IMG/VR virus record: IMGVR_UViG_3300034101_005931
Coordinates: 1 to 64,000 of that record
Strand: one strand, 5' to 3'
DNA: 64,000 nt
Source: a virus
Shown here: positions 2,018-41,045 of the stretch, one piece after another
Layout: the number at the start of each line of letters is the position of its first letter
How positions within the stretch are numbered: position 1 is the first letter of the stretch
The notes under the pieces: model-generated
Databases searched by the model: none
What the model saw: the letters and a program-made list of their open reading frames with translations, nothing else
What the model was told of the DNA's origin: nothing
Program-made: the position numbers and the translations under genes

Positions 2018-2551
2018 TTACGGTTGCTTCTCTTCATCTTCATCAGGATCAAAACCAAAACGCTTAATTGCTTCTTCTTTACACAGAGTCACACACCAGC
2101 CTCTTGAATATAGTTTACCAGGCTTTCCTGTGACCTCACAAGTCTTAGAAGAAAGATATTCACAAAAATCTATAGCACTTTCAATTGTATCGGAATACCT
2201 GCTAAGGTTTTTATAGAGCTCATCCGTGTCTTTAAGCTCGAATCCAAGTTCTGCATAATTCAGCTCACCAAAATGCCAATACACCCGGAGAGTACCGTAC
2301 TTCTCTTTGATTTGGTCAAAAACAACATCCGGACAATAGAAGTTAACATACTCACCATCATTTTTCTTTATGAAATAAGAGCGATTTTTCTGAAGGTTTG
2401 TAATGAACCCGCAAAGGTTATCGAGAATATCAAACCACCCGTCACCGCACTCACACCCAAAACAGATAAGAGTCTCTTTTGGTGACATGTTTATGTTTTT
2501 AAAAAGCTTAGGATACTTTTCGATTAGTTTATGTTCTAGTTCTTGTTTCAT
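2018..2551 (-). CDS. Conserved phage hypothetical protein
   Basis: ECGDGWFDIL, QIKEKYGTLRVY and TCEVTGKPG motifs typical of a widespread phage family. Confidence 0.65.
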   Translation of the reverse strand: MKQELEHKLIEKYPKLFKNINMSPKETLICFGCECGDGWFDILDNLCGFITNLQKNRSYFIKKNDGEYVNFYCPDVVFDQIKEKYGTLRVYWHFGELNYAELGFELKDTDELYKNLSRYSDTIESAIDFCEYLSSKTCEVTGKPGKLYSRGWCVTLCKEEAIKRFGFDPDEDEEKQP

Positions 2552-21555: not shown

Positions 21556-21630
21556 GCATCGGAAGCTAAACGGCTAGGCAATGGTCTGCAAAACCTTTAT
21601 TAGTCAGTTCGACTCTGACCCGATGCTCCA
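21556..21630 (+). tRNA. tRNA-Cys(GCA)
   Basis: GCATCGG/CCGATGC acceptor, U73, CCA. Confidence 0.9.
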
Positions 21631-21673
21631 TTTTTTTATTTGCAAATAGCAAATATTCGTATAATATGAATTT

Positions 21674-21880
21674 ATGTATACGACAAGATTATCATTCAAA
21701 GGCAATAATATGGAAGTTGGTATCAAAACCCTTTGGACCAACGATGGTGAAGATCATTATGATTTAGAAATTCGTTCAAAGAAAAGAATCTCTGGTCATG
21801 ACTTTCAAGCTTTAAGAAACTATCTTCAAGAAGAAGGTTATATTGAAGCAGCACGAGAATGGAATAAAAATCTTGTTTAA
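21674..21880 (+). CDS. Hypothetical protein within tRNA array
   Basis: Follows TTGCAA..TATAAT promoter-like sequence. Confidence 0.65.
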   Translation: MYTTRLSFKGNNMEVGIKTLWTNDGEDHYDLEIRSKKRISGHDFQALRNYLQEEGYIEAAREWNKNLV

Positions 21881-21881
21881 C

Positions 21882-22217
21882 GATCTGGCCGTAGTGGTTT
21901 CCAGATCAGGGTGGAATCTCTTTGCCTGTTAGTGTGTTAGGAGACCCATCTGTGCTAGACGAGCTAGGCTACATAAAGCTACGACTCTATGCATTTAGTT
22001 TAACACAGGCTGAGGACGGAAGTACTGGCTCCATGCCGGGCTCCGTTGAGGAAGGGACAATTCCTAGGACAAAACCCTTCACATACTAAATATTTTAGTA
22101 GACCCGGGACGCCTCTCGATGATGTCGATGCGCACCGTTCGGGTGATCTAGCGTGATAACAAAGCCAGTACACATTAAGTTGGGACGCCTTCGGTTTCTG
22201 GTACAAAAACACGCCCT
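21882..22217 (+). ncRNA. Unidentified structured RNA (~335 nt) abutting tRNA-Ile
   Basis: No credible ORF; stems GATCTGG/CCAGATC, AGGGTG/CGCCCT, GCCTGT/ACAGGC, GTACTGGCT/AGCCAGTAC, CCGGG/CCCGG, GAAGGG/CCCTTC, TACTAAA/TTTAGTA. Confidence 0.7.
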
Positions 22218-22219
22218 TT

Positions 22220-22293
22220 CCCTCCTTAGTTCAGTAGTAGAACGGTTCTTTGATAAGGAACAGAGCATGGGGCGGTACCATGAGGAGGGACCA
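22220..22293 (+). tRNA. tRNA-Ile(GAU), non-canonical T-loop
   Basis: GTTCT-TT-GAT-AA-GGAAC; T-loop GGCGGTA; CCA. Confidence 0.85.
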
Positions 22294-22298
22294 TTTTA

Positions 22299-22389
22299 GG
22301 GCAGATAGCTGAGTTGGTCTAAGGCGCCCGACTTGAAATCGGAAGTGGGGGAAACTTCACCATGGGTTCGAATCTTACTCTGCCCGCCA
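22299..22389 (+). tRNA. tRNA-Ser(UGA)
   Basis: Long variable arm, G73, CCA. Confidence 0.9.
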
Positions 22390-22654: not shown

Positions 22655-22725
22655 GCCGCAGTAACATAAAAGTAATGTGTTAGTCTTCCAAACTAAAGAA
22701 CTCGGGGCAGTACCGTGCTGCGGCA
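22655..22725 (+). tRNA. tRNA-Gly(UCC), non-canonical T-loop
   Basis: TTAGT-CT-TCC-AA-ACTAA; T-loop GGCAGTA. Confidence 0.85.
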
Positions 22726-40581: not shown

Positions 40582-41034
40582 GGGGGTGTACTGGTTTCGA
40601 CCTGAAACAGAAACTAAAAACGCATGTAGAGGTTGGTCAGCTGGCCTCTTAAAAAGCAGACCGAAAAATTAAGAGCAGATAATACTGACTCCATCTTGGC
40701 TGAAGCCGAGTACATATTCAACAACGCTTCCGAGTTTCTCGGAGAGGTTGAAGAAGAGTATCTCTTAGCAGCTTAAGGTCCTTTAACTCAGACCCTCTAA
40801 GAGTTAATTGATAACAGAGGAAGTTAGATTGTTGGTAGTTCTAATGTAACAACAAAATATCAACCGTATATAGATTGCGATAATGTCTATAGGCAGACTA
40901 AAAACTCGGTTAGTGTCACCAAGCAGCCTAAAGTCTTCGTTACCGTATGGTGGCTGAAATGCTGAAGATACTAAAACATGTAGACCTTTTAGTCTATGGA
41001 TTCAGGGACAGGGGTTCAACTCCCCTCATCTCCA
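40582..41034 (+). ncRNA. ssrA: tmRNA with tag (A)ADNTDSILAEAEYIFNNASEFLGEVEEEYLLAA
   Basis: 5' GGGGGTGTACTGGTTTCGAC; 3' GACAGGGGTTCAACTCCCCTCATCTCCA; G3-U70; tag ORF 40675-40776 ends LAA-stop. Confidence 0.95.
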
Positions 41035-41045
41035 CTTTTTAACTA

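Follow-up and report, generated by a model that had tools for sequence, protein, structure and literature searches.

GOLLD (RF01998) and ROOL (RF03087) are RNAs of phages and prophages that are encoded near transfer RNA (tRNA) islands, contain many pseudoknots and form homo-oligomers through kissing loops (PMC12286853). According to the same work, the palindromes in loop L21a of GOLLD switch from one sequence to another yet stay palindromic, the palindrome switching in GOLLD L21a and in OLE L9.3 corresponds to intermolecular bridges seen by cryo-electron microscopy, and tRNAs sometimes lie inside GOLLD or ROOL. The manA RNAs (RF01745) assemble into 8- to 60-mers (10.64898/2026.07.01.735769). 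The abiF RNA (RF03085; also RCd22 or AbiFr) is a cis-encoded antitoxin of the abortive-infection HEPN ribonuclease AbiF/Abi_2, to which it binds directly and which it neutralises in cis and in trans (10.1101/2025.04.15.648962, PMC12737573, PMC12165695); the copies known from these reports are directly upstream of the toxin gene (10.1101/2025.04.15.648962, PMC12165695). Here we analysed a block at positions 21882-22217 of a 64,000-nucleotide (nt) stretch of viral DNA (positions 1 to 64,000 of IMG/VR record IMGVR_UViG_3300034101_005931, hereafter the window), which belongs to a viral contig of 86 kb with an estimated completeness of ~39%, and compared this block with those RNAs.

Comparison of the window with its relatives (denoted by L and a number, and sorted into groups A, B and C, with L218 apart) revealed that the block is composed of three separable, conserved modules: module 1, the 5' domain (21882-22089), module 2 (22102-22144) and module 3 (22151-22214). 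The original prediction, made from the window sequence, had proposed one domain whose two ends could be closed by a helix; this helix is not kept in the relatives. Module 1 is a multiply pseudoknotted RNA of ~208 nt whose family is not in Rfam 15: a scan of 21600-22320 at E <= 10, run with the RNase P models included, found no family inside 21882-22217, and our literature search, for which supplementary files were outside the scope, found no description of module 1. On balance, with confidence only slightly better than even, we read the block as a composite RNA cut from the tRNA transcript, in which a self-associating scaffold is joined to a decoy of the AbiF antitoxin. The block would be transcribed with the phage tRNAs, and ribonuclease P (RNase P) acting at tRNA-Ile would free its 3' side; modules 2 and 3, which start with an abiF-type hairpin, would keep host AbiF silent during infection, while H7 kissing loops would give rise to module 1 homodimers or larger assemblies, as in GOLLD, ROOL, OLE and manA.

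The structure of module 1 was evident from compensatory changes (Table 1). RNAalifold applied to 15 sequences, all of them 208-215 nt long, returned 32 pairs, 13 of which had changed on both sides, with compensatory changes in H1, a, b, b2, H5, the lower stem of H6, H7 and one loop-loop contact. When the whole fold reported here was scored on the five full-length sequences of the block, 93.5% of cells were paired with 10 double-change pairs, its covariation score was reached by none of 500 shuffles and slid controls paired at 26-45%; the whole fold of the original prediction, on the same five sequences, gave 87.6% paired and 4 double-change pairs. The prediction of a discrete structured RNA within the tRNA operon is upheld by conserved homologues with compensatory changes, and so are five of its ten helices: GATCTGG/CCAGATC, TCTC/GAGA, GCCTGT/ACAGGC and GAAGGG/CCCTTC, together with the GTTA/TAAC part of GTGTTA/TAACAC. 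The proposed pseudoknot, in which TCTC/GAGA crosses GCCTGT/ACAGGC, proved real and more elaborate than first drawn. A sixth helix, TACTAAA/TTTAGTA, is invariant throughout and competes with the long-range helix c/c'. The other four did not hold on the five full-length sequences: the closing AGGGTG/CGCCCT had 73% of cells paired and no double changes, the 9-bp helix GTACTGGCT/AGCCAGTAC had 80% paired, no double changes and three of nine pairs broken, CACC/GGTG had 75% paired, three of four pairs broken and no double change, and CCGGG/CCCGG had one pair broken. Their strands covary locally instead, in H6, the abiF-type P1, M1 and M2.

The individual helices change their letters and stay paired. 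Hairpin a/a' reads UCUCUU/AGGAGA in the window and extends to as many as 10-11 base pairs (bp) in L365, L146, L224 and L171; strands paired better with their own partners (mean 7.27) than with partners taken from other sequences (5.37). In b/b', one pair is CG in eight sequences and UA in seven, another is CG in 14 and UA in one, and 2 of 90 cells are unpaired, while a b2 pair is G-C in five and A-U in two of the seven group A sequences. Three H5 pairs vary across the 15 sequences (UA:8 AU:6 CG:1; GC:9 AU:5; AU:6 GC:6 by RNAalifold), and on alignment A7 this hairpin had 100% of cells paired and two double changes. The K1 contact is made through different letters, with 7 bp in group C, 8 bp in L218 and 5 bp each in L365 and L206. 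The lower stem of H6 occurs in four variants, each complementary, and one variant found in an RNA-library contig has an H6 with one extra compensated base pair and an unchanged loop, which favours the local H6 over the long-range helix of the original prediction. Finally, c/c' changes from A-U in group A to G-C in groups B and C and in L218.

The 3' part of the block begins with module 2, a divergent form of the known abiF RNA motif in a context annotated once in print, in Synechococcus phage S-CREM1. It shares with the family a P1 of 6 bp, a P2 of 3 bp, a loop of the form CUCUC...GAU (CUCU...GAU in the comparison with the family) and a 3' bulge of 6 nt, and it differs by its longer loop, a score of 13.6 bits (22103-22144, E 0.88; the sole candidate in the 86-kb record), the lack of an adjacent toxin gene, a companion hairpin (M, module 3) and its place in a tRNA operon. 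The homologous hairpin of L224 scored 37.8 bits, passing the RF03085 gathering cut-off of 37 bits, and that of L146 reached 36.1 bits, 0.9 bit short of it. Over six group A sequences P1 and P2 were 100% paired, with three and one pairs, respectively, changed on both sides. RNAalifold on five fused and four stand-alone copies recovered M1-M3 as nested helices in which 11 of 16 pairs had changed on both sides. Taken together, the five helices of modules 2 and 3 were 94% paired in the six group A sequences, with eight pairs changed on both sides; none of 500 shuffles reached their covariation score, and slid controls paired at 26-52%.

Throughout the 86-kb record the hairpin is not upstream of an Abi_2 gene, since a search with PF07751 (Abi_2) at E <= 1 found none there, nor in the records of L146, L004 and L175 (20-23 kb). 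A search for an Abi_2 gene in the genome bin that includes L365 likewise found none, a result that is uninformative because the L365 contig is probably phage DNA. The absence of an adjacent toxin gene makes the hairpin a candidate decoy and not a cognate antitoxin. By analogy, a toxin-less abiF copy in a phage of lytic type is most likely a decoy antitoxin that would silence a host AbiF; among the three functions that the original prediction had offered (tRNA processing, decoy or ribozyme), the decoy fits the 3' module and an RNase P-like ribozyme is not backed. Phage PhiTE provides the precedent: its RNA pseudo-ToxI mimics a bacterial type III antitoxin and suppresses abortive infection (PMC3594212), but its toxin is ToxN and not AbiF, and it is a tandem-repeat RNA. 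The abiF RNA of S-CREM1 was annotated with no decoy interpretation given there, and our literature search found that annotation and no proposal of a phage abiF decoy.

The reading of module 1 as a self-associating RNA comes from the loop of H7, whose centre in the window is the palindrome TCCTAGGA. The 18-nt loop follows the pattern ACAA-palindrome-ACAAAA, and a perfect palindrome of 6-8 nt is at its centre in 15 of 15 sequences. Four kinds were found, UCCUAGGA in three sequences, CUCGAG in three, UCCGGA in eight and UCUAGA in one, and every difference between the kinds is symmetric (U-A to C-G, two changes of C-G to U-A, and insertion of a central UA). Because this is the same symmetric pattern as in the kissing loops GOLLD L21a and OLE L9.3, we read module 1 as self-pairing, and the pairing as intermolecular, since neighbouring bases of such a loop are unable to pair within one chain, as argued in PMC12286853. 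Judged from the sequences, module 1 would self-pair through an H7 kissing loop. In a clearly less probable alternative, module 1 acts as a monomer that binds a protein, a tRNA or a small molecule, the palindrome is used in some other way and the 3' module is still a decoy. Intricate pseudoknots are a typical trait of RNAs that bind ligands or proteins, and a specific contact is suggested by the invariant loop of H6 and by junction J6/7; however, a loop palindrome that changes symmetrically is hard to explain in a monomer when the adjacent loop bases cannot pair intrachain (PMC12286853).

Table 1. Positions of the structural elements of the block, the adjacent tRNA gene and the twister-like elements of relatives (window coordinates unless a locus is named).
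Feature	Span	Parts	Strand	Remarks
H1, 5' hairpin	21882..21907	arms 21882-21888 / 21901-21907; loop 21889-21900	+	10 arm variants, all complementary (15 homologues)
K1, loop-loop contact		H1 loop with H5 apical loop, GCTAC at 21968-21972	+	varied letters
Hairpin a/a'	21909..21947	arms 21917-21922 / 21939-21944; outer GGG 21909-11 / CCC 21945-47	+	varies, stays paired
Strands in hairpin a loop		b 21924-21929; c 21930-21937; b2 GTTA 21935-21938	+	distant downstream partners
H5 hairpin	21956..21989	arms 21956-21959 / 21986-21989; inner AGC/GCT helix, apical loop	+	covariation
3' strands b2' and b'	22001..22010	b2' TAAC 22001-22004; b' ACAGGC 22005-22010	+	pair into hairpin a loop, forming a pseudoknot
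H6 hairpin	22017..22045	lower 22017-22020 / 22042-22045; upper CTGGC 22025-22029 / GCCGG 22035-22039; loop TCCAT 22030-22034	+	
H7 hairpin	22051..22080	arms 22051-22056 / 22075-22080; 18-nt A-rich loop 22057-22074	+	stem covaries, 5 variants
Strand c' (ACATACTA)	22081..22088		+	pairs with c 21930-21937; marks end of 5' domain
abiF-type hairpin (module 2)	22102..22144	P1 22102-22107 / 22139-22144; P2 22110-22112 / 22130-22132	+	relatives match Rfam RF03085
abiF-type hairpin, unpaired parts		loop 22113-22129, 17 nt; 3' bulge 22133-22138	+	
M hairpin (module 3)	22151..22214	M1 22151-22155 / 22210-22214; M2 22165-22170 / 22196-22201	+	RNAalifold
M3 of M hairpin		22179-22183 / 22188-22192; GACG loop	+	A-rich internal loops in M hairpin
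tRNA-Ile(GAU)	22220-22290		+	Rfam tRNA model 45.1 bits; predicted cleavage at its 5' side would fix where the composite RNA ends (3')
Twister-like elements of relatives	L004:8036-8105; L175:1358-1427; L005:13311-13408; L101:5407-5483 (-)			directly behind 5' domain

The arrangement of the modules varies among relatives, and the existence of deletion variants and stand-alone copies shows that the block is modular. In group A (the window, L365, L146, L312 and L206) the 5' domain is followed by the 3' module and then by a tRNA. Two members of this group have deletions: L224, shorter by ~65 nt at its end, consists of the 5' domain and the abiF hairpin followed by a tRNA, and L283 has nothing behind the 5' domain, with tRNA-Ile 4 nt downstream. 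In L146, L206, L224 and L283 the RNA begins ~10 nt past the 3' end of a tRNA-Cys-like gene, so that the RNA of these relatives is directly between that end and a tRNA, which agrees with the original prediction that an RNase P cut at tRNA-Ile would set the 3' end. Only the 5' domain is present in groups B and C (L004, L175, L101, L204, L282, L005 and L171) and in L218; in all but L218 it is followed by other sequence and an intrinsic terminator. Conversely, modules 2 and 3 stand alone upstream in L003, L004, L175 and L101, between a tRNA and tRNA-Met. L175 has another abiF-like hairpin at 2803-2839 (25.6 bits), 8 nt before a tRNA at 2847-2919. Another deletion variant, L273:1-230 (-), has upstream sequence fused to H6, so that most of the 5' domain is gone and H6, H7 and a twister-like element are retained. 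In L312, at ~2140-2220 (-), the tRNA-Ile behind the RNA appears to be interrupted just past the anticodon region by unrelated A+T-rich sequence, which could be an intron or an insertion.

In groups B and C, a twister-like element begins 9-12 nt past the 5' domain; it matches the type-P1 twister model RF03160 over its full length and below threshold (L004 32.2, L175 31.1, L005 28.3 and L101 25.8 bits, against a cut-off of 67.2). It has the core of that ribozyme, with a U-A (UAA) site, P2, a covarying P4, a 10-nt L4 and optional P3 and P5; six of eight parsed sequences show the covariation of P4 and the variability of the P3 and P5 hairpins. In type-P1 twisters L4 pairs with L1 in pseudoknot T1 and with L2 in T2 (PMC5408937). 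The consensus pairs are CCC/GGG and GC/GC; in these elements CUC of L4 faces GAG in L1, and GU of L4 faces AC in L2. Both pseudoknots thus remain paired, as L1 and L2 have changed to match the two deviations of L4, and the low scores apparently reflect compensatory pseudoknot changes that escape the Rfam model. In these groups a predicted cut at the U-A step would release the 5' domain, and, together with the tRNA that follows it in L283, the twister-like element suggests that the 5' domain is a unit that these phages take care to release. The window itself contains no twister-like element detectable with Rfam at E <= 10. In L282:2481-2583 (-), and also in L259, the 5' domain and the twister-like element are separated by an inserted tRNA-like gene of 103 nt, which scores 42.8 bits with the Rfam tRNA model and has a short duplication at its flanks; it recalls the tRNAs within GOLLD linkers, and may be compared with the tRNAs sometimes found inside GOLLD and ROOL (PMC12286853).

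Among the described RNAs, manA is close in several respects: both it and module 1 are ~190-215 nt long, have a 5' hairpin followed by a pseudoknotted domain and lie directly between two tRNA genes. In S-CREM1 the gene order is tRNA-Leu, manA, tRNA-Asn, abiF (52 bits) and tRNA-Gly, so that the abiF hairpin comes one tRNA after manA and 4 nt before the next tRNA, whereas in the window it is fused directly behind the RNA. However, the helices and conserved letters of manA are unlike those of module 1, and a search of the window's record with RF01745 at E <= 10 found nothing. The M3 loop (22184-22187) and the first manA hairpin (L413:1216-1235) both have a G-closed GACG, which may be due to chance. 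GOLLD, as described in PMC12286853, is much larger than module 1, within the ~580-800 nt given for GOLLD and ROOL, and shares with it the switching loop palindrome, which H7 also shows. Neither the GOLLD nor the ROOL model has a match in the window. ROOL is likewise much larger, within the same range of ~580-800 nt. By analogy, then, the RNA would resemble manA, GOLLD and ROOL in place, size, pseudoknotted build and self-complementary loop, and by model it is not a member of these families.

AbiF is a dimer that binds two RNAs. In a more far-reaching version of our reading, which we offer as a tentative and rather improbable extension, module 1 would form an RNA-only dimer or cage that displays several AbiF decoys, a multivalent anti-defence particle cut from the tRNA transcript, and in sister phages the twister would free the scaffold.

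Several points weigh against the composite reading. Few independent palindrome events underlie the four kinds, and 6-nt palindromes also arise in composition-matched shuffles, at rates that range from 0.3 to 21% between loops, with 11-21% for the U/A-richer kinds. The upper stem of H6 is invariant in our set through ascertainment, as the copies were collected by an exact motif search, and the control for c/c' is weak (own mean 6.27, cross mean 5.52). The folding energy of the + strand (minimum free energy z-score -0.57) is equalled in 30 of 100 shuffles, and that of the minus strand of the block gives -2.07; because folding energy alone is no better than in shuffles, the claim of structure rests on the homologues. 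The abiF-type hairpin of the window scores below the RF03085 cut-off and its loop has 17 nt compared with 11 in the family, so that it may no longer bind an AbiF. The AbiF partner of the putative decoy is hypothetical, and the incompleteness of the record (~39% complete) leaves room for a phage-borne toxin gene. Lastly, the RNA-library contigs described below indicate presence only, without showing strand, ends or level, and DNA carry-over could account for them.

The modules could instead act purely in cis on the tRNA transcript, to process or insulate it, as leaders that aid RNase P, RNase E or RNase Z and have no function in trans. Each copy adjoins a tRNA, modules 2 and 3 end 5-14 nt before tRNA-Ile, tRNA-Asn-like or tRNA-Met, and the second abiF-like hairpin of L175 is similarly close to its tRNA. 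We nonetheless consider this explanation unlikely: tRNA-Ile manages without modules 2 and 3 in L283 and without module 3 in L224, groups B and C have a twister-like element and a terminator behind the 5' domain, and no tRNA, and the abiF match is specific. Somewhat less likely again is that modules 2 and 3 are the cognate antitoxin of an AbiF-type toxin of the phage itself, encoded in the unsequenced part, as in a Clostridioides difficile prophage system. A phage-borne AbiF system with its RNA does exist (10.1101/2025.04.15.648962), and the record is far from complete; however, known abiF RNAs are directly upstream of the toxin gene and the neighbours here are tRNAs, and Abi_2 was absent from the 86 kb and from the three relatives' records searched. 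It is highly improbable that the whole block is one ribozyme, RNase P-like and minimal or of another type, with its ends joined by a helix and with a P4-like long-range helix. The window alone permits a perfect 9-bp helix and a 6-bp closing helix, with flanks faintly like the conserved regions CR-I and CR-V, but comparative data refute the proposal: the helices are not kept, their strands covary locally, no model matches and the two halves occur apart or singly among relatives.

RNase P RNA was accordingly rejected as a candidate. The faint resemblance to CR-I and CR-V noted in the original prediction found no counterpart in any RNase P model, as none matched in the window at the gathering score or in 21600-22320 at E <= 10. 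The supposed P4 helix is not preserved in L146, L312 and L206, and its strands lie on separable modules. The model RF00010 had no match in the 86-kb record, and the same search recovered RNase P in 11 of 14 control genomes.

The relatives were collected in several ways. A blastn search against 50,697 phage records returned a match to tRNA-Ser only and no relative of the RNA, an exact 27-mer from the supposed CR-I region had no match in viral contigs, and a pattern search with the nearby 5'-3' exonuclease (FEN) protein alone gave no relatives. Alignment A1 of this exonuclease led to 80 related viral loci, in four of which nhmmer found pieces of the block; model R1 located the RNA in only L004, L005 and L006 of these loci, with a weak match in L020 (E 0.38). 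An invariant 15-mer and then a 21-letter pattern were scanned through viral, metagenome and genome contigs. The 15-mer gave mostly chance matches among the matches listed. With the 21-letter pattern 19 viral stretches were found, of which nhmmer confirmed 12 strongly and two weakly (L111 and L121), leaving L090, L118, L167, L186 and L203 unconfirmed; in the genome collection, 1 of 89 pattern stretches (L365) contained the RNA, and at least 119 matches came from metagenomes, where further copies exist. True copies were selected by nhmmer over 410 loci.

The analysed set comprised 15 distinct full-length 5' domains, a minimum for the number of copies (at least 15). Duplicates (L103, L115, L151, L170, L180, L201, L202, L207, L220, L257 and L266), truncated or deleted copies (L140, L259, L273 and L287) and a weak L111-like group (L111, L121, L216, L095 and L133) were left out. 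The search favours copies that keep the H6 motif. MAFFT misaligned H1, a/a', the lower stem of H6 and c' between groups, and counts for these come from a per-sequence best-helix search, which favours pairing; the own-versus-cross controls for that search were good for a/a' and K1 and weak for c/c'. L365 is a 7176-nt tRNA-rich contig in a metagenome-assembled genome (MAG) labelled Candidatus Melainabacteria, probably phage DNA binned with the MAG, and its RNA is followed by a tRNA-Asn-like gene and not by tRNA-Ile.

The DNA of the stretch occurs in many lake-water metagenome runs, pointing to a lake-water origin, and the contig encodes tail-fibre, virion and ribonucleotide-reductase genes, a transfer-messenger RNA (tmRNA) and more than 20 tRNA genes. 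The block lies within the first tRNA cluster, with a 68-codon open reading frame (ORF; 21674-21880) upstream and tRNA-Ile(GAU) 2 nt downstream. As the original prediction had stated, it is a non-coding block richer in G+C (0.46-0.51, compared with 0.28-0.38 for the flanking genes), and no long + strand ORF was found in 21882-22217; no terminator-like sites were found on the + strand between 20900 and 23100. The tRNA-Ile(GAU) was not detected by ARAGORN, and its T-loop deviates from the usual pattern; the tRNA at 22655-22725 is likewise an Rfam match only. Compared with L146, L206, L224 and L283, the 68-codon ORF, located between tRNA-Cys and the RNA, is present in the window phage only, and it has no PHROG match; PHROGs likewise gave nothing for the three small neighbouring ORFs. 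The tmRNA genes (window 40582-41037; L004:6298-6744; L282:5660-6103; L101:6818-7268; L003:4193-4641) are within ~1-3 kb of the RNA modules in the relatives and 18 kb away in the window.

Contigs of 168-319 nt from RNA libraries (three runs, from three studies) cover 21894-22096, and one of the RNA-library contigs has an L224-like form joined to tRNA-Ile. They reach neither the flanking ORFs nor 22117-22216, and nothing was drawn from these gaps. The positions at which the X21 and X22 contigs stop, 21894 and 21897, hint only weakly at a 5' end.

GOLLD, ROOL and manA, next to tRNA genes, have recently been shown to build RNA-only cages, and module 1 represents a new, compact and well-delimited family that shares their hallmark of a self-covarying loop palindrome. 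In different phages it is joined to one of three partners: a look-alike of the AbiF antitoxin, a tRNA or a predicted self-cleaving ribozyme. The order of tRNA, folded RNA, abiF hairpin and tRNA extends beyond the single published cyanophage annotation in S-CREM1. The twister-like elements, whose likeness to type-P1 twisters is limited to the relatives, where they score far under 67.2 bits and their cleavage is predicted, illustrate how Rfam models may miss ribozymes with co-varied pseudoknots. Through its fusion to an antitoxin mimic, module 1 would connect self-assembling phage RNAs with counter-defence in a way that can be tested.

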